The notes: generated by a model from the letters alone, not told the origin. Positions 360 through 17,198 are shown, counted from the first letter of the stretch. The stretch is 32,000 nt of DNA from Candidatus Velamenicoccus archaeovorus (GCF_004102945.1 NZ_CP019384.1:780001-812000); one strand, 5' to 3'. Program-made: numbers and translations.

Positions 360-425
360 TTTTTTTGGTCCAAATGTTTCATAATTGGAATATAAAATTT
401 ATAAAATGAAACAAAAGGAGGAATT

Positions 426-1247
426 ATGAAAAGTTGGCGAAGTGTAGAACGATGGGGTGTATTTTTGATCTTGAGTTTTCTGTGGACATCGGAAGTGTCA
501 GCGGCGATTCCACGAGCGATTAATTACCAAGGGCGCTTGACGGATTCAAGCGGGATTCCTTTAACAGGCGCCTATGATGTTACTTTCAAGATTTATGATG
601 CGCAAACAGCTGGAAATCTATTGTGGCAGGAGACGCATGCCGGAGTTGTTGTGGACAAGGGGCTGTTTAATGTGATCCTGGGATCTGTTTCTGGTTTGAA
701 TATTGCCTTTGACAAGCCGTATTATCTTGAGATCAAAGTTGGTAGCGAGGTTATGGTTCCCAGACAACAAGTCACAAGCTCCGGTTATGCCATACGGTCG
801 GAGATCGCCGATGATTCTGTTAAGTTCTTGGGTAAAGGCTTAGGTGATTTTGTTCTTTCCGGCGATATTACGGCAGTACCGACGGCCAATAAGGCAGTAA
901 AGCTCGACGGTAATGCGAAACTGCCTACAGCGGCCTTGAAGACATTTGATAGCGGTTGGTTCGTGGTCGTCCGTAACGCAGCTTATCTGAAGACGCATAA
1001 CCTGGGGACAACGAAATGTATCGTCGTCGGTTATCTTGCTGAAAATAGTGATGGCTCCGGCAGATTTGCTTGGGGGCTAGGACAGAACCAGCAGTATGGC
1101 GGCGGCGTTTTTGTTGCCGAGATGACGCCGACGACTGTAACCATACGGACCGATCCAGATCATTTGGGCAGTGTCAGAGACAAAAATGGCAATGCCTGGA
1201 ATCCGACGTCTGGTTACGTAAGAATTATTATGTGGGCACTGGAATAA
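426..1247 (+). CDS. Secreted protein with a tail-fibre-like N-terminal repeat motif
   Basis: Strong SD (AAAAGGAGGAATT-ATG). Signal peptide ends ..EVSA|A. The N-terminal block INYQGRLTDSSGIPLTG..YDVTFKIYDA..LWQE..GLFNVILG resembles a module I recall from tail-fibre/adhesin-like secreted proteins. The middle has KLDGNAKLPTAAL. The C-terminal domain is not recognised. Confidence 0.75.
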   Translation: MKSWRSVERWGVFLILSFLWTSEVSAAIPRAINYQGRLTDSSGIPLTGAYDVTFKIYDAQTAGNLLWQETHAGVVVDKGLFNVILGSVSGLNIAFDKPYYLEIKVGSEVMVPRQQVTSSGYAIRSEIADDSVKFLGKGLGDFVLSGDITAVPTANKAVKLDGNAKLPTAALKTFDSGWFVVVRNAAYLKTHNLGTTKCIVVGYLAENSDGSGRFAWGLGQNQQYGGGVFVAEMTPTTVTIRTDPDHLGSVRDKNGNAWNPTSGYVRIIMWALE

Positions 1248-1298
1248 TAGAGAGATAGGTGCTGTTAAAAACAGTTGTATTAACAAGGAGGAAGGAAT

Positions 1299-1568
1299 AT
1301 GTCTTTTGAAATCAAGGTCAATAGGATCCATCGCCTGGATCCGCAAATCAGGAATATCAAGGCATTTGCGGATATCGAAATCAGCGGCGCAATTCTTGTC
1401 AAGGGGTTGCAGGTGTTGGATGGCAGGAATGGTCTGTTTGTTTCTATGCCGCGACAAAAAGGTAAAGATAATAAATGGTATGAAACAGTCAGGACGATGA
1501 CGCCGGAAGCGAAAGATAAAGTGATGTCTGTGGTTTTGGAGGCGTATGAAGCCAAGACGAGCGAATAA
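1299..1568 (+). CDS. spoVG: SpoVG family protein
   Basis: SD AAGGAGGAAGG upstream. 89 aa. Has the SpoVG pattern: KAFADIEISGAILVKGLQVLDGRNGLFVSMPRQK..KWYETVRTMTPEAKDKV. Confidence 0.9.
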   Translation: MSFEIKVNRIHRLDPQIRNIKAFADIEISGAILVKGLQVLDGRNGLFVSMPRQKGKDNKWYETVRTMTPEAKDKVMSVVLEAYEAKTSE

Positions 1569-1688
1569 CTAAGAGAGTTTGAGAGGTGCTCCGTTTAGGT
1601 GTCCGGGATTAACCCCGCAGTGGATGGATTTCTGTAATTTTATGAAGGCGGAGGGTTTGATTCCGTCTGATGCGCGGTTGAGGAGGAT

Positions 1689-1892
1689 ATGGCGATGCAA
1701 ACAGATAAGGCAATGATATTGAAAAGGCTCCAAGGCAGACGAAATGTGCTCAGAGAGAAGCTTAAAAAACATTTTAGTTCGGCTGTTTCTGAGCGGGATT
1801 ATAAGGAGTTTGAAAAGATAGTTGACGAGCTTGATGAGTTAAGAATGAAGATTCGTTTTTTAAAAATGGAGAATGTCGATGATAAAGGGTAG
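1689..1892 (+). CDS. Small charged coiled-coil protein, unknown function
   Basis: AGGAGG at 1681-1686. The ATG at 1695 is better spaced than the one at 1689. Helical, charged sequence. Its 3' end overlaps the start of the next gene, suggesting coupling. Confidence 0.5.
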   Translation: MAMQTDKAMILKRLQGRRNVLREKLKKHFSSAVSERDYKEFEKIVDELDELRMKIRFLKMENVDDKG

Positions 1893-3423
1893 GGTTTTGA
1901 TAAAAAAGCTGGGCCTTGCCGGCGTATTTTTAATCATGATGGGATTTTGGGGGTATTGTTATGTCTACGCCGGTGATTTTGAGCGTCTTGATTCAAGGGG
2001 ATTGGAGGGGCGCAAACCTTTGTCGATTAGCTCGGACGAAACGGGAGGTCAGGTTGTTTGGGTCGGGACTGATGGGGGTATTTTTAGGAAGGAACTTTCG
2101 AAAAACGGAGCATGGCAAAAGATTGTATTAGAGGATGTTGCCGATGTTCGTGTCAACCGCATAGAATTTTCTTCTTATGTACCTTTTGGATATGCCGCTA
2201 CTTCGAAAGGGGTATATGAAATAGATCCCGTTTCTTCCTTGACCTGCAAGATATATTCCAGCGACCAGGATGCTGAAAATGAATGTTATGGTGTGGCAGT
2301 TGACGTTGGCCAGAACATTTATATCGCCACAAAAGGAGGTCTCTTCGTGAGACCCGGGAAGGGAAAAAGATGGACAAAAAGCATTGCTGTCTTGGGAAAT
2401 AAGACGATTGATTATGTTTATGCCGCAGGAACGGTTCTTTATGTCGCGGCATCCGACGGGCTCTATCGATCGAGAGACAAAGCAAAAACATGGGAAAAAG
2501 TTTTTTCTTTGAGTACGGGTTCAAGCCGTGAGGAAGCGGCTGAAGATGAGGAAGAAAACGCCGAGGAAGGTGTGTCAAATCGTATTTATGCAGCCATGGG
2601 GGAGAAGGGGACGCCGTCCACGATCTATCTGGCAACATCGCTTGGGGGATTCCGGAGTCGGGATGAAGGAGAAACTTGGGAGTCGCTGCCTTTGACAGGA
2701 TTGGATTCAAAGGGTATTCTTGATTTGATCCTGTCTGTATCTCGAGGGGCACTGTATGCTGCGACAAAAAATGGAGTGTTTCGAATGGATGGGGATGGTT
2801 GGTCTGTGATTGCTCCATTAAATGCTTGCCATGGTCTGGTTTTGATTAATGAAAAGATTTTCGTCGCAACGTCTATGGGGATCTATGCTTTTGAAGTGAA
2901 TGATGGCAATGACGAAATCAGGATCTCTATAAACAAAGATACCAAACAAGATTCTGAATATGAACCAACTATCCAGGAAGTCCAGCAAATGGTCATACGA
3001 TATTGCGATGTCAGCAATGATAAGATTGCCTCTTGGCATAAAGAGGCCAGAGTTAAAGCGTTTTTACCGGATTTGTCGTTTGGATATGGCAATAATGTCT
3101 ACGGATCCTATAATGGGATTTTCGCCGTCGGTCCTAACGATTGGCAGGTGAATCTGTCCTGGGAATTGGGTGATTTGATATATTCCCCTGATCAGACAAG
3201 CATTGATGTGCGTTCACGTTTGATGGTGCAGTTGAGGAATGATGTGCTCGCTGAGGCAACGCAATTATATTATGAACGTAAAAGACTTCTGATTGAGCTT
3301 TCCGACGGTTTTTTAAGCTCAGAAGACCTTTCTAAAAGAAAAATCAGACTTGAAGAAGTTTCTGCGCTTCTCGATCGATTGACGGGAGGAACTTTTTCAA
3401 AAGTTTTAAAAAGCTCACCTTAG
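1873..3423 (+). CDS. Membrane-anchored/secreted BNR (Asp-box) beta-propeller protein with a TolC-like C-terminal segment
   Basis: Hydrophobic N-terminus. Asp-box motifs SRDKAKTW and SRDEGETW, plus degenerate copies (GKGKRWTKS, SKNGAWQKI). An acidic linker EEAAEDEEENAEE. The C-terminal ~140 aa (..WQVNLSWELGDLIYSPDQTSIDVRSRLMVQLRNDVLAEATQLYYERKRL..) resembles one repeat of outer-membrane efflux (TolC/OEP) proteins. The ATG at 1879 has better spacing from GGAGA (1868-1872) than the one at 1873. Confidence 0.8.
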   Translation: MSMIKGRVLIKKLGLAGVFLIMMGFWGYCYVYAGDFERLDSRGLEGRKPLSISSDETGGQVVWVGTDGGIFRKELSKNGAWQKIVLEDVADVRVNRIEFSSYVPFGYAATSKGVYEIDPVSSLTCKIYSSDQDAENECYGVAVDVGQNIYIATKGGLFVRPGKGKRWTKSIAVLGNKTIDYVYAAGTVLYVAASDGLYRSRDKAKTWEKVFSLSTGSSREEAAEDEEENAEEGVSNRIYAAMGEKGTPSTIYLATSLGGFRSRDEGETWESLPLTGLDSKGILDLILSVSRGALYAATKNGVFRMDGDGWSVIAPLNACHGLVLINEKIFVATSMGIYAFEVNDGNDEIRISINKDTKQDSEYEPTIQEVQQMVIRYCDVSNDKIASWHKEARVKAFLPDLSFGYGNNVYGSYNGIFAVGPNDWQVNLSWELGDLIYSPDQTSIDVRSRLMVQLRNDVLAEATQLYYERKRLLIELSDGFLSSEDLSKRKIRLEEVSALLDRLTGGTFSKVLKSSP

Positions 3424-3454
3424 TTTTTTCAAGAGTATAACCCTCTGATTTTTC

Positions 3455-3483
3455 TTGACTTACCTCACATATGTTTGTATAAT
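3455..3483 (+). promoter_or_regulatory. Sigma70-type promoter for the REC-OMP-HD-GYP-MshEN operon
   Basis: TTGACT (3455-3460), a 17-nt spacer, then TATAAT (3478-3483). AGGAG follows at 3505-3509 and the ATG at 3519. Confidence 0.7.
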
Positions 3484-3518
3484 TTATTTTCTTAGATTTT
3501 CATTTAGGAGCAAAGATT

Positions 3519-3884
3519 ATGCCCAAATTGATGGTGGTCGATGACGAAGAAGACGTCAGGGAATACCTCAAGAGTTATTTCAGAAGGCGCAAGATTGACG
3601 TTGTGACAGCCGAGAGCGGTGAAGAAGCCCTGAGCCTTCTTAAAAGCCTGGATCCTGATCTGATGCTTTTGGATATCCGGATGGGGGGCATCGACGGCAT
3701 TGAGACATTGCGCAGAATGAGGGAAGCCGGGAAGCAGACAAAAGTGATCATGGTGACGGGTGTCGAGGAGCAGAAGATACTGGACCGTCTGGCTGAATTC
3801 AACGTCCTGGCTTGCGTGCATAAGCCTTTGATGCTCGATGAGCTTGAAAAGCAGGTATTGCAGAGAATCGTTATCGATCCTTAG
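3519..3884 (+). CDS. Single-domain response regulator (CheY-like receiver)
   Basis: Acidic pocket VVDDEED, phospho-acceptor context DLMLLDIRMGG, VIMVTG and HKP motifs. 121 aa with no output domain. Confidence 0.9.
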   Translation: MPKLMVVDDEEDVREYLKSYFRRRKIDVVTAESGEEALSLLKSLDPDLMLLDIRMGGIDGIETLRRMREAGKQTKVIMVTGVEEQKILDRLAEFNVLACVHKPLMLDELEKQVLQRIVIDP

Positions 3885-3942
3885 TTCCGTTTACCAGAAT
3901 TCCCTGTCCGCCGTAAGCGGCGGGCGAGGGCTCCAGACATCT

Positions 3943-6714
3943 ATGTTGATGCTCAAAAGAACGTTGTCATTGTTGATCGTTGCTGCGATCATCATCCCGC
4001 CCCAGGCCGCTTTTGCTTTTTCTCCGACTTCCCAGTATCTCGTAGAGACAGCCATGACGTATTACAGCATGGGCTGTTACCAGGAAGCTCTGCATGAATT
4101 CAACAAGGCGCTTCTTGTCGATCCGGAGAATGCCGATGCCCAATATTATATCTCTAAAATAAATGCGACAAATGAAATGGTGGGTTCGTCGCGTAGCGCC
4201 GTCATTGCCGAAATGCTGGATGCGCAGGAGGGCGCGGCATCCCAAAAACGGGTTCAGGCAAGCCGCGAAGAGATTGTCAACCGTCAATTAGCGGAGTTCT
4301 CAAGAAGGCCGGGATCCGAGGCGGCGCCATCTGGCCGAGGGGCACAGCACGCCGGCGAAGAGGGCCTTTCGGGGCAGCAGGTTTCGGATTATGCGACTAT
4401 TTCAGGTGAATATCAGGCGGCCATGGGGGTGCGTTCGCCGGATGAGTTTATTTGGAAAGAAGCCAATGCCGATTTGAATGAGCGTAACTACAGGATTCTT
4501 TTCAGCGATACGCGTTATAACACGTTCGACCCCGCCATCTACGATCGCCTTCGTTTTATCATCGACACCAAGCCTCAGTCAGTTTCGGATGGCTTGTTGA
4601 CGGCCCACACCAATCTGACGATTGATCCCTGGAGTTTTACGGGGAAGTCCGACAAGTTCACGGTCACCGGCGCAGGCGGTGATGCCGTCGAGGTGGAATT
4701 GAAATACTGGTCAAATACCGGCAGGACCATCAATGAAATCTATAACACGTTGAGGAATGGCGACGGCCTGGCCCTGCCGGAAATCAAGGTGATTGATGGA
4801 ATGACGTCCCCAACGACCGTTACCTCTACCTTCAAAAATACGTTTACCATCCCATCCCAGAAGATTGATAGGACTTTTATGCCCATCAGGGAATTCTGGC
4901 TGGATTACAAGGAAGAGTCCTTGAGTTTTCGATTTTTCCCCATGGGCTTCCAGGATCAGGCGTTGACAAGCGACGATCCCCTGAATGTTTCCAATCATCA
5001 TACGTGGTGGGAGGAGAGTCCTTGGCTGGCGGATTGGAAGCCGGGGCAGTTGAATGCCGGCGCCACGCCCGTTGATTTTACAAAAGGCCAATGGGACGAT
5101 TCTCTGGCATTTTACACCCGCGACAGCGACGGGGTTCGCCTCACGGCTTTGAGGGGCGGGACGCTGGCCTATGACGGCATCGATTTTAAGCTAAGGTCCA
5201 CCATTGCCAGCCCCAAGAACCTCTGGGCGGATTATGACCAGTTCGAGACCTATGCGGCGGCGACAAGGATGACGTATGATCTTTTGTATAACGTCGGAAT
5301 CGGTTTTACGCATGCCGGACATTACGGCTTTAATGAGAGTAATTTAGACGGCCTAAACAATGTCTTTTCCTTGGACGGCAAGATGGAGCCGATCGTCGGC
5401 ACCAAGTTCGTGATCCAGGCGGCGACTTCGGAATCTTCTTACGACCTTTCCGACGATGTTTATGAAACCCATAAAAGTGGCCAGGCGTATTTCGTTTCCA
5501 TGGTCAATAGATGGCCCTCCGAAGATCTTTATGAGCAGGATTACGGCGCGGTCAGACGCAGCCAGGATGAGGCGTGGTTTTTGAAGAGCCGGTTGCGTGC
5601 CGTCCGCATGGCCCAGGGGTTTGATGCAACCCTGTCCAATTACAGCCAGACGAGGGATGATGAGTATTGGTCCCGTCATATTTCTTTCCGTAAGCACCCG
5701 TTGTACATTTACACGGGTCTGACCAAACCCATGAAGTTCGAGGATATCGAGGCCTTTGCCATCGGCGATGGCATCGACAGCGGTCGTTCCGTCGTCAGCT
5801 GGCGGCTAGAGGGGGAAAAGAAAATATTCGATCATTATCTCAAAGGTCTCTTTGATGTCCGTAACGTGCATAATTCCCAGACGGGCAGGTTCATCGAGAA
5901 TGTCGCGCGCCTCCAGATGGAATATCCTGTGACGGACAAATTAATGACAAAATTTCTTGGTATCCGTCATAATCTGCATAAGACGACGGCGGGCGTGGAT
6001 CCATTCATTTATAACGAAGACCTGGATGCGTATGTGGTGAATTCTTCAATCGTCGGCGGACAGGACCCCTCCCTGGGAACCGTTTCCGTAGGCCTGGAAT
6101 ACCAGGTGAATGAAATGGTTGCCGTGAATACGGTATATGAGCATACCAACGACTCGACGGTGGCCACGGACAATTATCCCCGGGGTCTGTTCAATGATTC
6201 CAGCTACACGACCTATGTCGAGAACGGAAAGGTTTACCGTGAGGCCATCCCCTTCCTTTACAGCCAACAGTATTTTCCCCTGCCCCCCTATGACTACTTT
6301 GATATTTATAAATTCGGCTTCAGCTTTCAACCAACTCCTCAGCTGGAATTCTATCTTGATCTTGCCATGAACCAGTTCAAAGAAGCCGGCCAGATCGACG
6401 ACAACATGAACCATTACGGCTTGGAGATCGCCTACGTCCCTACGGCCAAGTTGTCTTTTTTGTTCAAGTATGTCTATTCCCGGTGGATCGATATGCTGAT
6501 GCTGAATGCGACAGGGGAGAGGATCTTCGAGTGGCACAACAATTTTTTCCTTGAGACGCGCTACAAGATGGAAAAAGATGCGGAATTGATCTTCGATTAC
6601 GGTGTCGGTGGCATCACGCCGCTGGGGTCGTCTACTTATGATCCTTTCGGCGGTTCGCTCGCGGTACTGGACACTCAGCATATTTTTAGGTTATATTATA
6701 GAAAGAGGTTTTGA
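3943..6714 (+). CDS. Large secreted TPR-containing protein, putative outer-membrane beta-barrel
   Basis: Start taken at M36 of the track ORF because it begins a signal peptide (MLMLKRTLSLLIVAAIIIPPQAAFA|FS). TPR-like YYSMGCYQEALHEFNKALLVDPENADAQYY, then a low-complexity linker, then ~750 aa rich in aromatic and alternating residues. The C-terminus is ..HIFRLYYRKRF with a terminal Phe, which looks like an OMP beta-signal. No named family recognised. Confidence 0.75.
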   Translation: MLMLKRTLSLLIVAAIIIPPQAAFAFSPTSQYLVETAMTYYSMGCYQEALHEFNKALLVDPENADAQYYISKINATNEMVGSSRSAVIAEMLDAQEGAASQKRVQASREEIVNRQLAEFSRRPGSEAAPSGRGAQHAGEEGLSGQQVSDYATISGEYQAAMGVRSPDEFIWKEANADLNERNYRILFSDTRYNTFDPAIYDRLRFIIDTKPQSVSDGLLTAHTNLTIDPWSFTGKSDKFTVTGAGGDAVEVELKYWSNTGRTINEIYNTLRNGDGLALPEIKVIDGMTSPTTVTSTFKNTFTIPSQKIDRTFMPIREFWLDYKEESLSFRFFPMGFQDQALTSDDPLNVSNHHTWWEESPWLADWKPGQLNAGATPVDFTKGQWDDSLAFYTRDSDGVRLTALRGGTLAYDGIDFKLRSTIASPKNLWADYDQFETYAAATRMTYDLLYNVGIGFTHAGHYGFNESNLDGLNNVFSLDGKMEPIVGTKFVIQAATSESSYDLSDDVYETHKSGQAYFVSMVNRWPSEDLYEQDYGAVRRSQDEAWFLKSRLRAVRMAQGFDATLSNYSQTRDDEYWSRHISFRKHPLYIYTGLTKPMKFEDIEAFAIGDGIDSGRSVVSWRLEGEKKIFDHYLKGLFDVRNVHNSQTGRFIENVARLQMEYPVTDKLMTKFLGIRHNLHKTTAGVDPFIYNEDLDAYVVNSSIVGGQDPSLGTVSVGLEYQVNEMVAVNTVYEHTNDSTVATDNYPRGLFNDSSYTTYVENGKVYREAIPFLYSQQYFPLPPYDYFDIYKFGFSFQPTPQLEFYLDLAMNQFKEAGQIDDNMNHYGLEIAYVPTAKLSFLFKYVYSRWIDMLMLNATGERIFEWHNNFFLETRYKMEKDAELIFDYGVGGITPLGSSTYDPFGGSLAVLDTQHIFRLYYRKRF

Positions 6715-6747
6715 AGGGCCCACTCACGCTTAACAGCTTGGTTGCCT

Positions 6748-7929
6748 ATGAGGGTCAATTATAAAAAAGAACTGGAAGAAGCGGCGAGGAACATGATCCT
6801 TGTCCATAAGCCGCATACCCTCATCCGCATGATTCTGCGGACGATCGTGCGCAAAGTTAAGATTGAGCACGCAGGCACCCTCCTTTACGAAAAAACCCGC
6901 AACAGCTATATCGTTACCATCACTCGCGGCCAGGTTGGCGCAAAATTGCCGGCGGGCTTTATCCGCCTGGATCCCGATGCGCCGATCATCCGCTTTTTCC
7001 GCCACAAAGAAGCATACCTCAGTTTTTTTGAAGATGGCGCCTTGATCCTCAGCCGCGTCAATTATCTCCTGCAGAAAAAAGAGCTTTTCCATAATGATCC
7101 GGAAACGGAAAAGCTCCTGATTGCCATAAAATTTCAAATGAAGAGTTTCGATGCCGTTGTGAGCGTGCCATGTTATTTCCAGAATGATCTTCTGGGCGTT
7201 CTGATGCTGGGAGAGAAGGTCAGCAAGAAATGTTTCAAGGACGAGGAAATCGATTTTTTTATCGCCTTGGCCAACGACGTGGCCATGGCCCTGCGCAATG
7301 CCTTCCTTTTCGAGGATTTGCAGCTGGAGATTGAGCGCAATAAACGCCTGTTTTTTGAGACGACGATGGCCTTGGCGGCGGCGATCGACGCTAAAGACCA
7401 TTATACGCGCGGGCATACCAGTCGGGTGACGGAATACAGCCTGGCGATCGCCAAGCTGATTGCGGCCGATGCGAATGGAAGGAGCGACGATAAATTCTTC
7501 GAGGAGCTTCATATCGCCAGCATGCTTCACGATATCGGTAAAATCGGCGTGCCCGAGTCTATCTTGAACAAGAACGGTCCCTTGACGGAAGAAGAACGCA
7601 AAAAGATCAACGAACATTCCCTCATCGGCGCAACGATCTTGGGCCCCATCAAGAATCTGGATGGAGTGATTCTGGGCATCAAGCATCATCATGAGCGCCA
7701 TGACGGCAGGGGGTATCCGGAAGGCCTAGGCGGTGAGGCTATTCCCTATGTTGCCCGCATTATTTCCGTGGCGGATTCTTTTGATGCGATGACAACAGAC
7801 AGGCCTTATCGTAAAGCTTTTACGCGGGATTATGCGATCGTGGAACTTGAGCGTTGCAGCGGTTCCCAGTTCCATCCCCAGATCGTTAAGGCAGCCGTGA
7901 CCTTGTACAAAAGGGGGGAGCTTAAGTGA
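6748..7929 (+). CDS. GAF domain-containing HD-GYP phosphodiesterase (c-di-GMP hydrolase family)
   Basis: HD-GYP signature: HYTRGHTSRV..HDIGKIGVP..HHERHDGRGYPEGL..ADSFDAMTTDRPYRKA. The N-terminal ~190 aa are GAF-like (..LGVLMLGEK..). The track ORF starts at TTG 6742; the first ATG is at 6748. Confidence 0.9.
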   Translation: MRVNYKKELEEAARNMILVHKPHTLIRMILRTIVRKVKIEHAGTLLYEKTRNSYIVTITRGQVGAKLPAGFIRLDPDAPIIRFFRHKEAYLSFFEDGALILSRVNYLLQKKELFHNDPETEKLLIAIKFQMKSFDAVVSVPCYFQNDLLGVLMLGEKVSKKCFKDEEIDFFIALANDVAMALRNAFLFEDLQLEIERNKRLFFETTMALAAAIDAKDHYTRGHTSRVTEYSLAIAKLIAADANGRSDDKFFEELHIASMLHDIGKIGVPESILNKNGPLTEEERKKINEHSLIGATILGPIKNLDGVILGIKHHHERHDGRGYPEGLGGEAIPYVARIISVADSFDAMTTDRPYRKAFTRDYAIVELERCSGSQFHPQIVKAAVTLYKRGELK

Positions 7930-8375
7930 GCGCGATCCAGAATAATGACCGTTACATCGGTGCATTGTTGGTCAAAGACGGCGTCATTACAGAGGGAGAC
8001 CTGCAAAGAGGTCTGGATGAACAAAAGAAAAACCGCGATTTTCTGTGCACGATCCTTGTACGGCTGGGGATGGCCAGCGAAGAAAAGATATTTTCTATCC
8101 TGTCTCTCCAAATAGGCGTCCCTTATTTAAGTTTAAAAGAACTTGCTATCGATCCATTTATTGTCAATCGGCTGCCCGGCCATTTGGCGGCTTCTTGCCG
8201 TTGCCTGCCGGTTAAAGAGGTCGGCGGAACGATGTATGTCGCCATGGCGGACCCCCTGGATTCCCGGGTGATTGATGAGATCCGCAGCTATTTGGGGGTT
8301 GAACGCATCAAGGCTTTCCTGACAGGGGATGACGACTTGAGCTCGGCTCTCCAGAAATACTACCACCTTCCTTAA
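7926..8375 (+). CDS. Stand-alone T2SSE_N / MshEN-like domain protein (putative c-di-GMP receptor)
   Basis: The GTG start overlaps the HD-GYP stop (GTGA, 7926-7929). Two tandem 24-residue motifs, YIGALLVKDGVITEGDLQRGLDEQ and FLCTILVRLGMASEEKIFSILSLQ, are separated by the 5-residue spacer KKNRD. After them, ..LPVKEVGGTMYVAMADPLD.. is typical of the GspE/PilB N-terminal domain. No ATPase domain. Confidence 0.8.
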   Translation: MSAIQNNDRYIGALLVKDGVITEGDLQRGLDEQKKNRDFLCTILVRLGMASEEKIFSILSLQIGVPYLSLKELAIDPFIVNRLPGHLAASCRCLPVKEVGGTMYVAMADPLDSRVIDEIRSYLGVERIKAFLTGDDDLSSALQKYYHLP

Positions 8376-8390
8376 AACTCACAAATTATC

Positions 8391-8419
8391 TTGACAATCA
8401 GGGAATACAGGCATATACT
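8391..8419 (+). promoter_or_regulatory. Sigma70-type promoter of the marR-efflux operon
   Basis: TTGACA (8391-8396), a 17-nt spacer, then TATACT (8414-8419). Confidence 0.7.
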
Positions 8420-8451
8420 TAACTTTAGAAATAGTTAAGTTAGTTAACTAT
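8417..8451 (+). promoter_or_regulatory. Nested inverted repeats, probable MarR operator
   Basis: ATAGTTAA (8431-8438) / TTAACTAT (8444-8451) form a perfect 8-bp inverted repeat with a 5-bp spacer. ACTTAACT (8417-8424) / AGTTAAGT (8434-8441) form a second perfect inverted pair. The site lies between the -10 box and the SD of the marR gene. Confidence 0.6.
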
Positions 8452-8465
8452 TAGAGAGGTTAAAT

Positions 8466-8912
8466 ATGACCCAAGAATCTTTAAGGGAATTCACCCGGCA
8501 GATGAGTCAGTTGATGCCGACGATCATGAGGGGGATCCTGAAACGCCATGCCGATGAGGTGACCAGCGGAGAGATCACTATCTCTCAGTATCTTGTCATG
8601 GAGATGCTAAGGCGCAAGGGGGCCATGAAGATGACACAGATCGCGCTGGAAATGGGGATCACGTTGCCGGCAGCCACGGGATTGATCGACCGGCTGCATG
8701 GCACGAAGATACTGGATAGATTGTATGATCAAGATGACCGTCGGGTGGTCCGTATCCATTTGACGCCCAAAGGCTGCAGACTTTTTTTACAGCTCAGCCG
8801 CAAAAGGGAAAAGATGGTCAAGCATATTTTTGGCAAGATCAGCGAAGAAGAGAGGCAGACCTACTTGAAGATTTTGAGGAAGATACGAGATGTTATTTAT
8901 GAGAAACCATAA
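8466..8912 (+). CDS. MarR family transcriptional regulator
   Basis: 148 aa. Winged-HTH region ISQYLVMEMLRRKGAMKMTQIALEMGITLPAATGLIDRL..DRRVVRIHLTPKG. First gene of the efflux operon. Confidence 0.9.
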   Translation: MTQESLREFTRQMSQLMPTIMRGILKRHADEVTSGEITISQYLVMEMLRRKGAMKMTQIALEMGITLPAATGLIDRLHGTKILDRLYDQDDRRVVRIHLTPKGCRLFLQLSRKREKMVKHIFGKISEEERQTYLKILRKIRDVIYEKP

Positions 8913-10455
8913 ACCGGCCGCCGCTGTTTTTTTGCTGCTGTTTTTTCTGGGAACCGTGTCATGTCTTGCGGCAGAGAAACAGGAACAAGAAAAGCCCGCA
9001 GTTCCGGGCAAGGAAGAGTTCATCAAAACAGCCAAGCAAAAGAAGACATTGACGCTGAGCGTCTATGATTGTATTCTTTTGGCTTTGAAGAACAATTCCG
9101 AGATCAAGATCGCCAGCGTCAACCCGAAGATCAAGGCCGATGACGTCCGTATTGCCCGGGCGGAGTTTGAGCCGACTTTGAATCTTGATTATATGCTGAC
9201 AGACACTACGGAACAGGCGGCGAGCACGCTTTTGGGCGCCGGGGTCTCTGCATCCAGGGAATTGAATCTTGATCTTAACGTCTCCGGGAAATTGATCACC
9301 GGCACTGAGTACAGCCTTGATTTTTTAAATAGCAGGGATTCCAGCAACTCATCGTTTCAGACGATAAACCCTTCTTATACCACAGAGCCGAAAGTGACGA
9401 TCACCCAGCCCTTGCTTAGAGGGTTCGGCATCGCGGTCAACAAGGCAGATATTTCGATCGCCGCCAATGACGAGAAAGTCTCTGAGCAGAACCTGAAGAG
9501 CATCGCCATGGACATTATCACAAAGACCAAGACGGCTTATTATGATTATTTTTACTATCGCGAGGCCTATAAGATCGCGGACGATTTCGTGCAGATGGCG
9601 TTGGACCTATTGAAGATCAACAAGCTTCGGTACGAAAAAGGCCTTGTAAGTTCCGTGGACCTTCTTGAGACAGAGACGGCCGTCTTGACGAGACGCAGGT
9701 CTTTGATCCTGGCTGAGACGGAACTGAAAAAAGCCGAGGATGAGTTGAAATACGTTACGAATATCGTAGATGATCCCCGGATGTGGAATGCGGTCGTTGC
9801 GTTGACGGATGAACCACTGTTTGACGACCAGGAAGTCGACCTCGTCGACAGCCTGGTAGCTGCTTTCAAAAACAGGCCTGACTATGAGGCCAAGCAAATC
9901 GAGCTGAAAAACAAGGACATCAGGATCAAGGTGACCAAGAACGCCCTGTTTCCTACTGTTGATCTGATCGGCAGTTTCGGGCTGAACGGCCTTGGGACGG
10001 ATTATTCCGACAGTCTGTCGAATGTCAGCTCGGATTACAAAGATTGGAGCGTGGGTGTTTCTTTAAGTCTTCCCTGGGGCGGTGCGGAACGGGCTGACTA
10101 CAATAAGTCCATCCTGGAAAAGGCCCAGGGACTGATGGAACTCAAGAGGCTGGAACAAAGTATTATTCTGGACGTCAGGGACAAGGTTAGAGGGGTTGAT
10201 TTGGCCATACAGCAGGTGGAGGCGTCTCAATTGGCGAAAGAGTCTCAGTGGAAGAACTATGAGGCGCAGAGGGAGAGGTATGCCGCAGGCCAGATCTCCA
10301 CGCATGATATGCTTGATTATCAGGATAAATATGCCAGGGCGGACCTCGATTATCTTAAAAGCCTGATCGACTACAACATTGCCCTAGTCGATTTGGATAG
10401 GAGCGAAGGTTTGACTTTGATGAACAATAATGTGAAGTTAGAAGGAGCCAAATGA
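8899..10455 (+). CDS. TolC-family outer membrane efflux protein
   Basis: Signal peptide MRNHKPAAAVFLLLFFLGTVSCLAA. The opening LTLSVYDCILLALKNNSEIKIA is typical of OEP proteins, and the two OEP repeats are present. An ATG at 8890 is an alternative start. Overlaps the marR 3' end and the MFP start (ATGA at 10452-10455). Confidence 0.9.
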   Translation: MRNHKPAAAVFLLLFFLGTVSCLAAEKQEQEKPAVPGKEEFIKTAKQKKTLTLSVYDCILLALKNNSEIKIASVNPKIKADDVRIARAEFEPTLNLDYMLTDTTEQAASTLLGAGVSASRELNLDLNVSGKLITGTEYSLDFLNSRDSSNSSFQTINPSYTTEPKVTITQPLLRGFGIAVNKADISIAANDEKVSEQNLKSIAMDIITKTKTAYYDYFYYREAYKIADDFVQMALDLLKINKLRYEKGLVSSVDLLETETAVLTRRRSLILAETELKKAEDELKYVTNIVDDPRMWNAVVALTDEPLFDDQEVDLVDSLVAAFKNRPDYEAKQIELKNKDIRIKVTKNALFPTVDLIGSFGLNGLGTDYSDSLSNVSSDYKDWSVGVSLSLPWGGAERADYNKSILEKAQGLMELKRLEQSIILDVRDKVRGVDLAIQQVEASQLAKESQWKNYEAQRERYAAGQISTHDMLDYQDKYARADLDYLKSLIDYNIALVDLDRSEGLTLMNNNVKLEGAK

Positions 10456-11348
10456 ACAAGATGCGCGACATCCATGGGGTTTTGTGTGTATGTATGGCAA
10501 TAGGCCTTTTTGCTATCGCCGGCTGCGGGTCTAAAAATGCGGAAGCCGTCAAAGAAAAAGAGGTCATTCCGGTCAAGGTGATGAAGGTGGAGACAAAAGA
10601 CTTGGAGAAGACCCTTGATTATGTAGGTAATATCAAAGCGAAAGACGAGGCCGGCGTTTACCCCAAGGTCAGCGGGAAAATCATAGAGAAAGTCAAAGAG
10701 GAAGGCAGCCCCGTTAACAAAGGGGATGTGATTGCATATATCGACAGAGATGAGGTCGGTTTTACGTTTGAAAAGGCGCCTGTCGAGAGTCCTTTGACGG
10801 GGGTCGTCGGCAGGATCAATGTCGATATCGGCGCTAATGTCGAGCCGACAACGCAGATAGCTTTTGTCGTCAACATGGAAAAGATGGAGATCGATCTGGA
10901 TATCCCTGAAAAATATTTGCCTTTTGTTGCTCTGGGGCAGGAGGCGAAGATCACGGTCGACGCCTATCCGGGTGTGGTCTTTATAGGCAAGGTGACGCTG
11001 ATCAGTCCGGTGGTGGACTTAGAGACCCGCAGCGCGCCCATTGAAATCACCATTGACAATAAGGAGGGGCGTCTGAAATCCGGGATGTTTGCCGATGTCG
11101 GGCTTATCATTGAAGAGCACAAGAATGTCCCGGTCGTTCTTAAAGAGGCCCTGATGGGAAAAGGGGACAATCTTTATGTTTATGCCGTTGAAGATCACAA
11201 GGCTTCGATGAGAATCGTCAAGGCGGGCATCCGTTATGGAGAATTCGTGGAGATCACAGAAGGCGTCAAGAGCGGCGATGTCGTGGTGGTGATGGGGCAG
11301 CAGAGGTTGCGTGACGGCGTTTCTGTCGAAACCGAGGAGTTGAAATGA
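10452..11348 (+). CDS. RND efflux periplasmic adaptor (MFP/HlyD family) lipoprotein
   Basis: Lipobox LFAIAGC. Barrel-sandwich/lipoyl motifs (VYPKVSGKIIEKVKEEGSPVNKGDVIAYID). ATGA overlap with the RND gene at 11345-11348. Confidence 0.9.
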   Translation: MNKMRDIHGVLCVCMAIGLFAIAGCGSKNAEAVKEKEVIPVKVMKVETKDLEKTLDYVGNIKAKDEAGVYPKVSGKIIEKVKEEGSPVNKGDVIAYIDRDEVGFTFEKAPVESPLTGVVGRINVDIGANVEPTTQIAFVVNMEKMEIDLDIPEKYLPFVALGQEAKITVDAYPGVVFIGKVTLISPVVDLETRSAPIEITIDNKEGRLKSGMFADVGLIIEEHKNVPVVLKEALMGKGDNLYVYAVEDHKASMRIVKAGIRYGEFVEITEGVKSGDVVVVMGQQRLRDGVSVETEELK

Positions 11349-12460
11349 GTCTTCCTGAATTTGGAGTCAGAAAACCCGTCAGCAATCTGATGATATTCAG
11401 CGCCATCATCATCCTGGCTTTTTACAGTCTGACGAGGATCGGCATTGATATCATGCCGGAGATCGAACCGCCGATCATTTCCGTTATCGCCGCTTATCCG
11501 GGCGCCAACCCGCAGGATGTCGAGATCAAGGTGACGGAACCGCTGGAAAACCAGCTGGCCACGACACCCGGACTGGAGAAGATCACATCGCGTTCCATGG
11601 AAGGAGCTTCTGTTATCTCCTTGAAGTTTAAGTGGGGGACAAACCTGGATGAGGCATCCAACGATATCCGCGACCGCATTGAACAGGCCAAGCGTTATTT
11701 GCCTGATATCCCCGATGAGATGGATAATCCGTTTCTCTATAAGTTCAACACAGCCAATATTCCCATTGTTTTTTTCGGCATCACGGCTAACCAGACTTAT
11801 CCTGAGCTTTACGACCTTATCGATAATTCGGTAGGCGATGCCCTGAGACAGCTACCGGGCGTCGGGACGGTCAATCTTTTTGGCGGTCTTCAGAGACAGG
11901 TTAATGTGTGGATCGACAGGGAGCGGCTGGAAGGATACGGTTTTTCCATCCTGGACATAACAAATGCGCTTGATAAGGAAAATATCACTCAGCCTGTCGG
12001 CAACATCAAAATGGGCTTGACGGATTATCTTCTGCGCCTTCCGGGAGAATTTGCGACTCCTGATGAGATCAATTCCGTCATCCTGGGCAAGAGCGGCGGC
12101 AAGATCGTTTTTCTGAAAGACGTCGCACGCGTTGAGGACGGCTTCAAGGAAGTCACGATGATCGTGCGTATCAACCGGAACCCAGGGCTTCTGATGCAGG
12201 TGCAGAAGCAGACAGGCACCAACACGGTCGAGGTGGCTGAACGCGTCAAGAAGAAGATCGCGGAACTCGAGAAGACGCTGCCCTCCGATGTGCATATGCA
12301 GATCATTTTTGATACTTCCGAGGATATCATCAATTCGGTCAATAGCTTGACGTCTTCTGTTTGGGTGGCTATTGTTTTGGTTATTTTTGTCGTGTGGTTT
12401 TTCCTGAGGCAATCCGCTCCCAGCATGATCATTGCTTTGACAATTCCCTTTTCTCTTCTA
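11345..12460 (+). pseudogene. RND (AcrB/HAE1-like) efflux pump, N-terminal 372 codons, truncated by an IS insertion
   Basis: Typical RND N-terminus (RKPVSNLMIFSAIIILAFYSL..). The reading frame runs into IS sequence after ..TIPFSLL and stops at 12487. Confidence 0.85.
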
Positions 12461-13003
12461 ACTCAGCGGGAGTTCCCCGCCTGTTAAGGCGGGGGTGAGA
12501 GCCCGTTCCTGTGTCTTCCGGAGGTTATGATATACTGAATCCATGCGATTAAAGCGATCCGCCCACGCGGTCTATCAGACGCAGTACCACATTGTATGGG
12601 TTACCCGGTATAGACGAAAAATCCTCAACAAGGGTGTCGCCAAGTACCTGAGAACGAAACTTCAAGAGGCATGCGAGTATTATCCTGATTGGGAGTATAT
12701 GGCGATCGGGATCGCCGAAGACCATCTGCATCTGCACATGGTCATTCCGCCGAAATACGCTGTGAGCATGGTTGTTGAGACATTGAAGAAAAATACGTCC
12801 CGGGAGCTGAGCTTGAAGTTTCGTTTCCTCAAGAAGTTCTACTGGGACAATGAGGGTATGTGGTCCACGGGATTTTTCGTCTCAACAGTAGGCGTCAATG
12901 AGGGTGTCATCAAGAAGTACGTTGAGATGCAAGGCAAGGAAGACACAGGACAAGCGGAGCTTGGCTTTTAACAGAACCCCGCCTGTAAAGGCGGGGGAAT
13001 CTA
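12461..13003 (+). mobile_element. IS200/IS605-family insertion sequence (tnpA-only, IS200 type), 543 bp
   Basis: Carries a Y1/HUH transposase gene flanked by near-identical subterminal hairpins in the same orientation: CCCCGCC-TGTTAA-GGCGGGG (12475-12494) and CCCCGCC-TGTAAA-GGCGGGG (12977-12996). TCTA sits just 5' of the left junction (12457-12460) and forms the last 4 nt of the element (13000-13003). Because of that shared TCTA, the boundaries are uncertain by up to 4 nt. Confidence 0.85.
12543..12971 (+). CDS. tnpA: IS200/IS605 family transposase TnpA (Y1 HUH)
   Basis: YQTQYHIVWVTRYRRKIL, the HUH motif EDHLHLHMVI, WSTGFFVSTVG, and C-terminal KKYVEMQ carrying the candidate catalytic Tyr. 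142 aa. Confidence 0.92.
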   Translation: MRLKRSAHAVYQTQYHIVWVTRYRRKILNKGVAKYLRTKLQEACEYYPDWEYMAIGIAEDHLHLHMVIPPKYAVSMVVETLKKNTSRELSLKFRFLKKFYWDNEGMWSTGFFVSTVGVNEGVIKKYVEMQGKEDTGQAELGF

Positions 13004-15010
13004 TTCACCTTTGTCTATCTATTTTTAAGCGGCAAGACCATCAACACGATCAGTCTTTCTTCCGTTGCCATTGCGAGCGGCATGGTCGTAGATAATGCCA
13101 TCGTCATTGTCGATAATATCCATCGCCGTCTGGAGAAGGGAAACAGGCCGCAAGAAGCGGCGATCTTCGGAGCCAACGAGATGTTCCTGGCGATTGCCGC
13201 CTCGACGATGACAACCGTTGTGGTCTTTTTGCCCATGTTGTTCATTTCGGGTGTTGTCGGTATCATGTTTGGTGAATTGGCGATCATCGTTATCGTAACT
13301 CTCCTGGCGTCTCTCTTTACGGCCGTTACTTTCAGCCCGATGCTTTGCGCCAAATGGTTAAGAGTAAGTTCTCCGTCGCAGAAAAAACAAGGCATCTTCG
13401 CGAAGTTTTATGATTTTTCCGAGAAGATCTTTACTTCATGGGAAAATTTCTATGCTCATGCTCTTGAGCGGTGTCTGAGGCATAGGAAATTTACCTTGAT
13501 CGGCTTTTCCATTGTGTTTGCATGCAGTCTTCTGTTGGCGCCTTTTGTCGGCAATGAATTCATTCCTGAGGAGGATTCCGGCGACGTCAGGGTGACAGTC
13601 GAGCTTCCTATCGGGACCCGGGTCGAAGAGTCTGACAAGGTGGCAAAAAGAATCGAAGATATTTTTGTCAAAGAGGCGCCAGAGAGACGATATCTATTCG
13701 TTAGGAGCGGCCAGGTAGCCGGTATCGGCAGGACGTCTGGTCAGGCGGCCGGAAGCCATGTTGTTTCTGCCGGCGTCAAGCTTGTGTCCAAAACAGAACG
13801 AAAGCGTTCCGTCAAGGAAGTCGGCCAGGTTATAAGAAAGCAGATCGCCAAGATCCCGGGTGTCCTGAAGGTGGATATCACGACAGGCAACCCTCTGGGG
13901 CAGTTGATCACGGGAACGGGGGGCAAGAGCATCCAGGTTGAGATCATCGGTCATTCTTTTGAGGCGACGGATGCCGTTGCCAACCAACTCAAAAATATCA
14001 TGGAGAAGGTCCCCGGCGCTGTCGATGTCTCCATCTCGCGCGAGCTGAAGCGGCCTGAACTGGTCATCAAGGTCGACAGAGAAAAGATAGGGGTCCTAGG
14101 GATTGATATGGAAACGATCGCCGACAGTGTTAAGACTTATATCGAAGGCTCGGTGGCAACAAAATACCGTGAAAAAGGCGAGACCTATGATATCTATGTC
14201 AGGCTGGAGGAGTCCAACCGCCAAAAGATCGAAGATGTTGAGAATCTGGCCATCGCATCGCCTTATTCCGGCAAGCAGATAAGACTGGGCAATATCGCGA
14301 CGATCTCGGAGACCGTTGGTCCCGAAGAGATCGAGCGCCAGAACCGCGAAAGAGTGGTGCGTGTTTCCTGCAATACTTTTAATAGGTCATCCGGGAAAGT
14401 CATTGAGGATATCAAAAAGGAAACAGACAAGATGGTATTGCCGGCCGGCATCTATATAAATTTCGGCGGCGAGGCGGAAGAGCAAACCAAGGCTTTTAGG
14501 GATCTGGCCCTTCTTTTGGCCTTGGGTATTATCCTCGTCTATATGGTTATGGCGGCTCAGTTCGAATCTCTGCTGGACCCTTTTATTATCATGTTTGCGG
14601 TGCCTTTTACATTTACGGGCGTTATTCTCGGTCTTTTGGTGACCCGCAGCACATTGAACGTTATCAGTTTTCTTGGCGTTGTTATGTTGATGGGCATTGT
14701 CGTCAATAATGCCATCGTTTTGATCAGTTATATCAATATCCTGCGCGCCCGCGGAATGTCGATGGAGCAGGCCATCACCCAGGGCGGCAAAGAGAGACTG
14801 CGGCCCGTCCTGATGACGACGATCACGACCCTTGTCGGTCTCCTGCCGTTGGCTCTTTCGAGAGGCGAGGGTTCGGAGAGCTGGCAGCCTTTGGGTGTGA
14901 CTATGGTTGGGGGGCTGCTGGTATCTACGTTTATTACGATGCTTTTTGTCCCTATACTGTATGCCGTTTTTGAGAATAGGCTCAAGAAGAATGGAGGGGC
15001 GAAATCATGA
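13004..15010 (+). pseudogene. RND efflux pump, C-terminal 668 codons, downstream of the IS
   Basis: In the same frame (mod 3) as the N-terminal fragment. Reads FTFVYLFLSGKTINTISLSSVAIASGMVVDNAIVIVDNIHRR.. (a conserved RND TM4 region) and continues to a typical C-terminus. Joined to 11345-12460 it gives ~1040 aa. Confidence 0.85.
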
Positions 15011-15579: not shown

Positions 15580-15666
15580 ATTCTACGGAAGTAAACTTTT
15601 TTGCAAGACGTTCGTCTAAACAGACGCAAGGATTTTTGGGTGTTCGTGGCGAAAAAAGGAGGAATT

Positions 15667-16755: not shown

Positions 16756-16763
16756 ATGTGCCT

Positions 16764-17198
16764 ATGGAGATGAAAAAAATTGACCATAAAGGGTTCACGC
16801 TGGTTGAGATCCTGATTGTTGTCGCCATCATTGTCACGGTGGCCGCCATCGCGATCCCAAATCTTGTCAGGGCTAGGATCAATGCCAATGAGGCGTCTGC
16901 CGTAGCTTCTTTGAAAACGTTGACGTCCGCGGCAGAGGCTTTTAGGATGGCTCAGATTCCGGCAAGATTTCCAGGGAATCTAAGCGAAATGAGCGGGACA
17001 GAGCCGCCTTTTATCGATGTGGTTCTTGCCAGCGGCAATAAGTCTGGTTACAGTTTTGCTTGGACAGGGGGCACGAATACCTATTCCGTTGTTGCCGCAC
17101 CCCAGACTCCTAATGTGACAGGCGTCCGGGAGTTTTTCCTGGATCAATCCGGTGTCATCAGGGTCGGCAACACCTCATCAGGAGCGCCCATCGAATAG
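16764..17198 (+). CDS. Type IV pilin / prepilin-type N-terminal cleavage-methylation domain protein
   Basis: Class III signal MEMKKIDHKG|FTLVEILIVVAIIVTVAAIAIPNL with Gly-1, Phe+1 and Glu+5. The track ORF begins at GTG 16758; ATGs are at 16764 and 16770. Confidence 0.9.
   Translation: MEMKKIDHKGFTLVEILIVVAIIVTVAAIAIPNLVRARINANEASAVASLKTLTSAAEAFRMAQIPARFPGNLSEMSGTEPPFIDVVLASGNKSGYSFAWTGGTNTYSVVAAPQTPNVTGVREFFLDQSGVIRVGNTSSGAPIE

Follow-up and report, generated by a model that had tools for sequence, protein, structure and literature searches.

A composite operon of Candidatus Velamenicoccus archaeovorus that probably combines a cyclic-dinucleotide signalling cassette with a giant outer-membrane barrel gene

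A unit of four genes in a 32,000-nt window from the closed genome of Candidatus Velamenicoccus archaeovorus LiM (CP019384, 1,974,201 bp) is best explained as a composite operon, in which a phospho-relay/cyclic-dinucleotide cassette of known type is combined with a giant, uncharacterised barrel gene of the phylum, the latter being co-expressed with the cassette in the Velamenicoccus clade. We give this reading a probability of about 0.55. V. archaeovorus is a predatory nanobacterium, and the Omnitrophota are a widespread phylum of ultra-small, often predatory bacteria. The placement of strain LiM in GTDB is Omnitrophota; Koll11; UBA1572. The four proteins encoded in the window are exact matches to QAT16844, QAT16845, QAT16846, and QAT16847. 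All positions are window coordinates, and the unit and its immediate surroundings have the following features:

3455 to 3483, plus strand: sigma-70-type promoter TTGACT-17-TATAAT, 11/12 consensus match, conserved in the clade
3519 to 3884, plus strand: gene for a single-domain CheY-like receiver (REC), BU251_03390, QAT16844, 121 amino acids (aa), PF00072
3902 to 3930, plus strand: GC-rich hairpin in the spacer between the REC and barrel genes, a possible but weak attenuator, 12-bp stem in the centroid fold
3943 to 6714, plus strand: gene for the giant barrel protein, BU251_03395, QAT16845, 923 aa, with signal peptide, short TPR, disordered linker, and predicted beta-barrel
6748 to 7929, plus strand: gene for a cytoplasmic GAF-HD-GYP phosphodiesterase, BU251_03400, QAT16846, 393 aa, HD_5 and GAF_2
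7926 to 8375, plus strand: gene for a stand-alone MshEN protein, QAT16847, 149 aa, PF05157, GTG start
8391 to 8419, plus strand: next promoter, TTGACA-17-TATACT, 11/12 match, which marks the 3' boundary of the unit
1873 to 3423, plus strand: upstream context, gene for a membrane-anchored seven-bladed propeller protein, QAT16843, 516 aa, fold predicted by AlphaFold2

A clade-conserved operon

A sequence-only reading of this window had described a consensus promoter followed by four genes on the same strand, and this layout was confirmed by the open reading frames (ORFs) and the promoter match: the REC and barrel genes are separated by 58 nt, the barrel and HD-GYP genes by 33 nt, and the HD-GYP and MshEN genes overlap by 4 nt. 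A longer barrel ORF opens at 3838, and the GenBank start of QAT16845 is at 3943; QAT16846 uses the start at 6748, with an alternative TTG start at 6742. The GTG start of the MshEN gene is preceded 6 nt upstream by the strong Shine-Dalgarno sequence GGGGGGAG. The domain calls REC, TPR, GAF-HD-GYP, and MshEN were all borne out by hidden Markov model (HMM) searches with Pfam and NCBIfam. Neither an ATPase nor a GGDEF-type diguanylate cyclase nor a secretin was found in the operon neighbourhood among the window ORFs and in the HMM searches, again as proposed. Within the four-gene unit no glycosyltransferase and no inner-membrane component are encoded, and the window contains neither a match to an Rfam family nor a tRNA.

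The motif CTTGACTTA...TATAAT/TATACT is kept 5' of REC in 15 of the 16 clade loci, in contrast to the divergent spacer around it. A locus that has no barrel gene (L085; compared loci carry L numbers) is among those that keep both boxes, -35 and -10, of the operon promoter. Judged from these alignments, the conservation of the promoter motif exceeds chance. The junction between REC and barrel consists of a 6-nt gap in one relative (L001) and of an overlap in another (L086), the barrel and HD-GYP genes overlap in four (L008, L010, L012, L013), and the HD-GYP and MshEN genes abut or overlap across all clade relatives. Because the promoter is conserved and the junctions shrink to 6 nt or to overlaps in relatives, the four genes are interpreted as an operon. 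That they form a real, clade-conserved operon, with co-transcription and hence co-regulation of amounts, is well supported, and this part of the earlier proposal has held. A candidate internal promoter for the HD-GYP gene in the 3' end of the barrel gene (6668-6697, 10/12) was discarded, because the conservation of its -10 box does not exceed what the codons impose; it is also disfavoured by the overlap of the barrel and HD-GYP genes in several relatives. At the other end, the promoter at 8391-8419 is followed by palindromic operator-like repeats (TTAACT.../AGTTAA) and then by a MarR gene at 8466. The nested palindromes at 8391-8465 (TTAACT...AGTTAA / AGTTAAGTTAGTTAACT) resemble a MarR operator and precede a MarR-TolC-MFP-RND unit.

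Expression values were taken from the published metatranscriptome and metaproteome tables of the enrichment culture (PMC12583861). The transcripts per million (TPM) are 13.9 for the upstream gene, 44.0 for REC, 10.3 for the barrel gene, 17.4 for HD-GYP, 11.9 for MshEN, and 4.0 for MarR. All four operon genes are transcribed at 10-44 TPM, and the rise from 13.9 to 44.0 fits the promoter at 3455-3483; a single transcript is not proven by these levels. The fall from 44.0 to 10.3 TPM takes place across the hairpin at 3902-3930 and may reflect it, with the reservation that the hairpin is statistically weak (z-score -1.36), has no T-run, and is not conserved in the relatives with their 6-nt gap or overlap. 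The same three properties led to its rejection as a terminator.

For the comparison of gene neighbourhoods, an alignment of 40 barrel sequences was scanned against one genome per species, and the window proteins were then searched in all ORFs of 80 loci. The scan gave 172 matches, of which the 80 listed loci were analysed and 92 others lie outside the comparison. All 13 loci with a barrel at least 54% identical keep the order propeller-REC-barrel-HD-GYP-MshEN-MarR(-TolC-MFP-RND), as far as the contigs reach. A metagenome scan with the MshEN alignment added about 12 further contigs, and every one with enough upstream DNA has the order REC-barrel-HD-GYP-MshEN. About 20 contigs from a single Omnitrophota clade retain the four-gene operon, and within this clade the barrel is 54-90% identical. 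At the other approximately 65 species-level loci, by contrast, where the barrel is 38-48% identical, no REC, HD-GYP, or MshEN orthologue is present within 6 kb. The conservation of the gene neighbourhood thus holds in every long-enough locus of one clade and is absent at the remaining barrel loci.

The barrel family comprises more than 360 homologues, and these as well as the 172 genome matches are almost all labelled Omnitrophota. Outside the clade, the approximately 65 barrel genes are most often found in the arrangement tyrA-cmk-lepA-lepB-pgsA-plsY-(113 aa)-barrel; a 1,072-aa protein is encoded on the other strand there, gatC-gatA follow further on, and ROK, LacI, and ribonucleotide reductase genes form another context. 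No homologues of the usual neighbours (113-aa protein, 1072-aa protein, PlsY, PgsA, LepB) occur in the window. For the barrels of L018-L084 (e.g., L018 8803-12024, L019 54-392), the flanking 113-aa protein and the opposite-strand protein of about 1,072 aa are conserved, the latter without Pfam matches. The 80 listed loci stem from 80 different genomes, and the barrel family is apparently single-copy, as seen from these 80 of the 172 matches. Weak paralogues of the barrel were noticed in L051 (E 1e-11) and L055 (E 4e-9).

The signalling genes also occur without the barrel. Locus L085 (CAYRDK010000002.1), from a member of the clade, has the order SpoVG-61aa-propeller protein-REC-[245 nt]-HD-GYP-MshEN; the barrel gene is absent, and tblastn revealed no trace of a remnant. 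In two distant Omnitrophota loci (L118 and L123, propeller about 30% identical) genes for a histidine kinase, REC, and GAF-HD-GYP are directly adjacent and lie a few genes from a propeller-SpoVG-RHS block, with neither barrel nor MshEN there. The L118 proteins are 46% (REC) and 56% (HD-GYP, over the full length) identical to those of V. archaeovorus. Because the two genes are adjacent in these loci without barrel or MshEN, REC and GAF-HD-GYP are taken as the older unit. Among the loci compared, the location of the barrel gene between REC and HD-GYP, and of MshEN behind them, is specific to the Velamenicoccus clade.

The receiver, the phosphodiesterase, and the MshEN protein

The REC protein consists of a Response_reg domain (PF00072, 8e-28, aa 5-113) without an output domain. 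The acidic pocket and the phospho-acceptor residues are present (D8, D9, D52, T80, K102), and it has the characteristics of a CheY-like single-domain response regulator. The phosphodiesterase matches HD_5 (PF13487) with 2e-37 and, at aa 108-184 of QAT16846, GAF_2 with 1e-7 (32.4 bits, cut-off 28.6). The catalytic motifs LHDIGK, HHHERHDGRGYP, and VADSFDAMT are intact and align with those of PmGH and V-cGAP3; the HD dyad, HHExxDGxGYP, and the downstream Asp are all there, as is typical for the HD-GYP family. The best relatives in the PDB are V-cGAP3 (5z7c, 5e-33) and PmGH of Persephonella marina (4mcw, 5e-31). The likeness to PmGH includes the GAF-HD-GYP architecture and all catalytic HD/HHE/D/GYP residues, and the alignment starts at aa 137 of QAT16846, upstream of the HD-GYP domain. 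In contrast to PmGH, the KDHYTRGH of QAT16846, which aligns to KDPETQNH, has a Tyr in place of Glu185. In PmGH this residue of the N-terminal loop ligates the third metal, and the trinuclear subclass is characterized by full hydrolysis to GMP. Because of this Tyr, QAT16846 is assigned to the binuclear HD-GYP subclass and lacks the hallmark of the trinuclear, PmGH-like one.

REC and GAF-HD-GYP read as a split response regulator. They resemble RpfG and the REC-PAS/GAF-HD-GYP "RpfX" family (Galperin & Chou) in combining a receiver with HD-GYP and, optionally, a GAF domain in between, RpfX being defined as REC-PAS-HD-GYP with a central PAS or GAF domain. A further likeness to the RpfG type is that the gene for a cognate histidine kinase adjoins the orthologous REC/HD-GYP pair in L118 and L123. 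Unlike RpfG, in which REC and HD-GYP are united in one polypeptide, REC and GAF-HD-GYP are separate polypeptides, also in L118 and L123, and in the clade a 2.8-kb gene for an outer membrane protein (OMP) lies between them. The sequence-only reading had regarded a GAF sensor in place of the usual REC as unusual. This did not hold, because GAF-HD-GYP (the PmGH family), REC-HD-GYP, and REC-GAF-HD-GYP are catalogued among the common architectures, as are REC-PAS/GAF-HD-GYP proteins; fusions of MshEN have been published as well. MshEN fusions to REC and to HD-GYP are among those reported, and they support the view that the three signalling proteins form a unit by themselves. Membrane segments are predicted in none of REC, HD-GYP, and MshEN, and therefore none of the three can directly touch an outer-membrane protein.

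The 149-aa QAT16847 matches PF05157 with 1e-18 and reaches 45.3 bits with NF053729, a model for the cyclic di-GMP (c-di-GMP) motif with a cut-off of 38. Both sub-domains are present, the four-helix MshEN_N part and the MshEN_C part. Orthologues were found 59 times and are 145-159 aa long. The next-nearest relatives (40-45% identical) are the N-termini of PilB/PilF/GspE-type ATPases of about 570-600 aa, and by homology QAT16847 derives from the N-terminus of a PilB-type ATPase. It is not an ATPase itself, as it ends at 149 aa, MshEN is its only Pfam match, and a T2SSE domain is missing; the name given in GenBank, "type IV fimbrial assembly, ATPase PilB", is erroneous and goes back to the N-terminal similarity. 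Among 21,067 MshEN representatives recovered in an exhaustive profile search, the QAT16847 family forms one 50% cluster. The C-terminus of NfrB also matches QAT16847 in an HMM search.

The MshEN receptor has been described to contain two tandem 24-residue motifs, RLGxxL(L/V/I)xxG(L/V/I/F)(L/V/I)xxxxLxxxLxxQ, connected by a 5-residue linker. QAT16847 shares this arrangement with the N-terminal receptor domains of MshE, PilB, and PilF (5htl, 6f8l, 5zfr): both motifs keep the spacing, the 5-residue linker, every Leu/hydrophobic position, Gly10, and Gln24. It differs from them by the lack of the ATPase domain and by three ligand-site residues. In motif I everything is kept except Arg1 (the position of Arg9 in V. 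cholerae MshE), which is an invariant Tyr; in motif II Arg1 (Arg38 position) is Phe in QAT16847 and Phe/Tyr/His in the orthologues, and Gly3 (Gly40 position) is an invariant Cys in 18 of 18 orthologues. Other genuine stand-alone MshEN proteins of about 150 aa (P0445, P0448, P0467) keep the Gly at this position of motif II. In V. cholerae MshEN the backbone of Gly40 contacts guanine, G40I and G11L abolish c-di-GMP binding, and the non-binder XpsE carries R38G and G40L. Mutation of Arg9 changed the affinity less than fivefold, and the domain also binds cyclic GMP-AMP (cGAMP) weakly. With the invariant Cys at a ligand-contacting position, binding of c-di-GMP by QAT16847 is no more than plausible. 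The MshEN fold and the score above the NF053729 cut-off fit the earlier designation as a likely c-di-GMP reader, which is weakened by the deviations at key ligand positions.

The giant barrel protein and its surroundings

The 923-aa protein begins with a signal-like hydrophobic segment with AFA-F and ends with ...LYYRKRF. Pfam and NCBIfam models detect only one TPR stretch (aa 32-98). An AlphaFold2 model based on the alignment of 40 sequences (pLDDT 78.2, pTM 0.72) starts with the signal sequence, continues with TPR-like helical repeats as far as about aa 120, and passes through a linker without order into the strands: about 29 strands of at least 7 residues are predicted for aa 150-923, with short-strand insertions at about 228-400 and 557-614. 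A Foldseek search with this model against the PDB retrieved only large outer-membrane barrels, i.e., TonB-dependent transporters and LptD, with a probability of 1.0 for the top matches and E down to 3e-12, the TM-scores being only 0.20-0.38. With the barrel profile, the TPR alone matches the PDB. The generic OMP_b-brl model (PF13505) matches weakly in 11 of the 40 homologues; throughout the 40 sequences the C-terminal Phe is invariant, as are many Trp, Asp, Asn, Arg, and His residues. The general characteristics of an outer-membrane beta-barrel, i.e., signal peptide, predicted beta-rich barrel fold, and terminal aromatic residue, are thus present, in agreement with the earlier assignment as an OMP.

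At 14.3, 0, and 12.0 ppm (relative intensity-based absolute quantification, riBAQ) in three fractions, the barrel is the only one of the four operon products that was detected in the proteome (PMC12583861). Abundant V. archaeovorus proteins reach 400-10,000 ppm riBAQ in the same data. A level of 12-14 ppm is in keeping with a machine of low copy number, not with a major porin. The protein is predicted to represent a phylum-wide, low-abundance, uncharacterised family of outer-membrane barrels.

The structure and profile searches agree with the previous view that it is not a known porin, usher, or secretin. Its best fold matches are LptD (26 strands) and TonB-dependent transporters (22 strands), with Foldseek E of about 1e-9 to 1e-12. 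Unlike these, it has no OstA/LptD, plug, or TonB-box signature, and the TM-scores are only 0.2-0.38. A TonB-dependent transporter is not indicated by Pfam, as neither the plug (PF07715) nor TonB_dep_Rec matches the barrel, and the Foldseek TM-scores for this group are 0.2-0.35. The family models of PgaA, BcsC, PelB, and NfrA do not match the barrel either. TPR-porin exporters of exopolysaccharide have a long multi-TPR periplasmic domain, a C-terminal porin of 16-18 strands, and the synthase in the same operon. The V. archaeovorus protein has one TPR stretch and about 29 long strands, and a glycosyltransferase is not encoded in the unit. LptD was considered as a candidate, since the best target-normalised fold matches are LptD, and was rejected with TM-scores of at most 0.38. 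OstA (PF03968) and the LptD barrel (PF04453) are not among the 25 listed of the 32 families that match the 40 homologues at E<=1. An LptD-like role is weakened further by the Omnitrophota KEGG Orthology (KO) table (Seymour 2023 supplement), some entries of which list K04744, the orthologue group of LptD, separately.

The combination of an MshEN sensor, a TPR-plus-barrel OMP, and a c-di-GMP enzyme in one operon is reminiscent of NfrB-NfrA-DgcJ, the c-di-GMP-activated exopolysaccharide system of E. coli. In contrast to that system, the operon encodes neither a glycosyltransferase nor an inner-membrane component, and a phosphodiesterase takes the place of the cyclase; unlike NfrA, the barrel has no HMM similarity to NfrA, has about one TPR, and appears far larger. 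An NfrA/NfrB-like exopolysaccharide system was rejected on account of the missing glycosyltransferase and the lack of similarity to NfrA, PgaA, and BcsC.

Upstream of the operon, the window protein annotated in GenBank as "glycosyl hydrolase, BNR repeat" is 100% identical to QAT16843. Its AlphaFold2 model has a transmembrane helix (6-28), a seven-bladed propeller (about 45-341), and a helical/coiled C-terminal domain, and in fold the propeller best matches the periplasmic ligand-sensing propellers that belong to Bacteroides hybrid two-component systems. With 565 matches the family is phylum-wide, and it is conserved beside REC in the clade. The propeller gene adjoins REC-HD-GYP in L085 and lies near both genes in L118 and L123; it is not accompanied by them in L119-L122.

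Several other features of the window were observed. An IS200-family Y1 transposase (PF01797, 3e-29; tnpA 12543-12971, insertion 12460-13004) splits an AcrB-type RND gene into 11345-12487 and 13082-15010, all parts of which are still transcribed at a low level in culture; the relatives L087 and L088 (95% identical DNA) are devoid of this 545-bp insertion and have an intact RND gene. Positions 426-1247 encode a 273-aa signal-peptide protein with an N-terminus like that of the "mosaic adhesive trimer" fibre family of Bdellovibrio (NF053851, 3e-11, below the cut-off), a suggestive likeness that fits a predatory bacterium. In close relatives the gene is likewise retained upstream, and related contigs contain RHS/Tc-toxin genes at a greater distance in the same direction. 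The 344-aa product of 15601-16635 combines a signal-like N-terminus with a long, highly charged region of RREDxRDRxED repeats. A lone prepilin-type (N_methyl) pseudopilin gene (16758-17198) and a gene for an AsmA/DUF748-like envelope protein (26244-27209, minus strand) are both unlinked to the operon.

Interpretation as a probable composite operon

The composite reading may be put as follows. The orphan CheY-like receiver and the GAF-HD-GYP phosphodiesterase would be the two halves of a split REC-(GAF)-HD-GYP response regulator, related to RpfG. An unlinked histidine kinase would phosphorylate the receiver, which in turn would modulate the phosphodiesterase, and the GAF domain might add a second, small-molecule input. 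As a member of the binuclear subclass, the HD-GYP enzyme probably linearises its cyclic dinucleotide and does not break it down completely to GMP. The cassette seems, in this clade, to have acquired the MshEN protein of 149 aa, which is translationally coupled and stems from the N-terminal part of a PilB-type ATPase; this protein would most likely sense the nucleotide locally, as an adaptor or decoy whose target is an ATPase of a pilus or secretion system or the cytoplasmic platform of that ATPase. Only in the Velamenicoccus clade does the single-copy gene for the barrel with its short periplasmic TPR lie between REC and HD-GYP, and there it is expressed from the conserved promoter of the receiver.

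Several points weigh against this reading. The target of MshEN, the interaction of REC with HD-GYP, and the ligand are all inferred. The neighbour-joining tree of REC and HD-GYP puts the barrel-less L085 into an unresolved basal polytomy, and thus does not separate an ancestral state from a secondary loss of the barrel gene. The order REC-barrel-HD-GYP-MshEN persists across the clade despite a divergence of the barrel to 54%, often with overlapping genes, and this persistence could reflect selection for a functional link, not inertia. Moreover, with the upstream neighbour, which likewise codes for an envelope protein, two envelope genes are interleaved with signalling genes. Finally, attenuation or additional internal starts would also be consistent with the TPM profile of 44/10/17/12.

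The earlier proposal went further and saw in the operon a dedicated c-di-GMP envelope module, in which the phospho-relay determines how active HD-GYP is, MshEN serves as the c-di-GMP reader, and the barrel responds in its gating, assembly, or surface display. The tight operon in about 20 contigs speaks for it, as do the receiver's promoter, which is the only one detectable for the barrel in relatives, and the precedent of NfrB/NfrA, where MshEN and a TPR/barrel OMP belong to one c-di-GMP-controlled system. We nevertheless consider it unlikely: in most of the phylum the barrel family does its work in the absence of these partners, the cassette also occurs on its own (L085, L118, L123), the signalling proteins are soluble and cytoplasmic in a unit that encodes no inner-membrane component, glycosyltransferase, or ATPase, and HMM searches relate the barrel neither to NfrA nor to PgaA or BcsC. 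The barrel may be controlled directly by c-di-GMP or MshEN; the gene order is the only positive sign of this, and the evidence favours co-expression. A variant supposes that in these predatory or parasitic Omnitrophota the only copy of a barrel of about 28 strands came under the promoter of the cassette, whose reader is a new kind of MshEN, and that a new second-messenger circuit tunes an outer-membrane machine during the switch between the free-living and the prey-attached state, possibly with cGAMP or pGpG as ligand; it would need an envelope-spanning link and is regarded as quite unlikely.

Two other explanations concern the ligand. MshEN might no longer bind c-di-GMP and might, independently of any nucleotide, mimic the PilB N-terminus, either scaffolding a partner of an ATPase for pili or secretion or competing for it, while HD-GYP and REC act separately on the global c-di-GMP pool. 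The exchanges at the Arg9, Arg38, and Gly40 positions point in this direction, together with the loss of binding in G40I and G11L, the R38G and G40L of XpsE, and the Gly retained by other stand-alone MshEN proteins. This explanation is doubtful, as the remaining motif positions and the linker are kept, the score exceeds the curated cut-off, the effect of the Arg9 mutation is small, Cys is much smaller than Ile or Leu, and the translational coupling of its gene to that of an enzyme which hydrolyses cyclic dinucleotides speaks for a connection with a nucleotide. Alternatively, the cassette might handle another nucleotide, 3'3'-cGAMP or linear pGpG, with an asymmetric MshEN matched to an asymmetric ligand. 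The cGAMP-specific V-cGAP3 is marginally ahead of the c-di-GMP enzyme PmGH among the relatives of QAT16846 and shares its Tyr at the trinuclear-site Glu position, VcMshEN binds cGAMP weakly, and of the two MshEN motifs only motif II is altered at base-contacting positions, motif I being canonical there. The difference in E-value is trivial, however, the substrate specificity of HD-GYP proteins is not readable from sequence, and a cGAMP synthase (DncV or Hypr GGDEF) was not seen, no search having been aimed at one; we regard this as very unlikely.

The signalling parts are of known kinds, and the barrel belongs to an uncharacterised family of outer-membrane proteins. The BU251 locus tags of the operon were not found in the literature, and the papers on Omnitrophota that were consulted contain no mention of c-di-GMP or of this barrel protein. 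To our knowledge, nothing is known about second-messenger signalling and outer-membrane biogenesis in this phylum. The barrel represents a phylum-wide giant outer-membrane family without a characterised relative, which is confirmed at the protein level, and one clade seems to have tied its expression to the promoter of a response regulator. The stand-alone MshEN variant together with HD-GYP could show how MshEN modules act outside of ATPases, and QAT16847 could reveal whether the Gly-to-Cys site changes the choice of ligand. If it were true that the barrel is under cyclic-dinucleotide control, it would represent a new output class for c-di-GMP.

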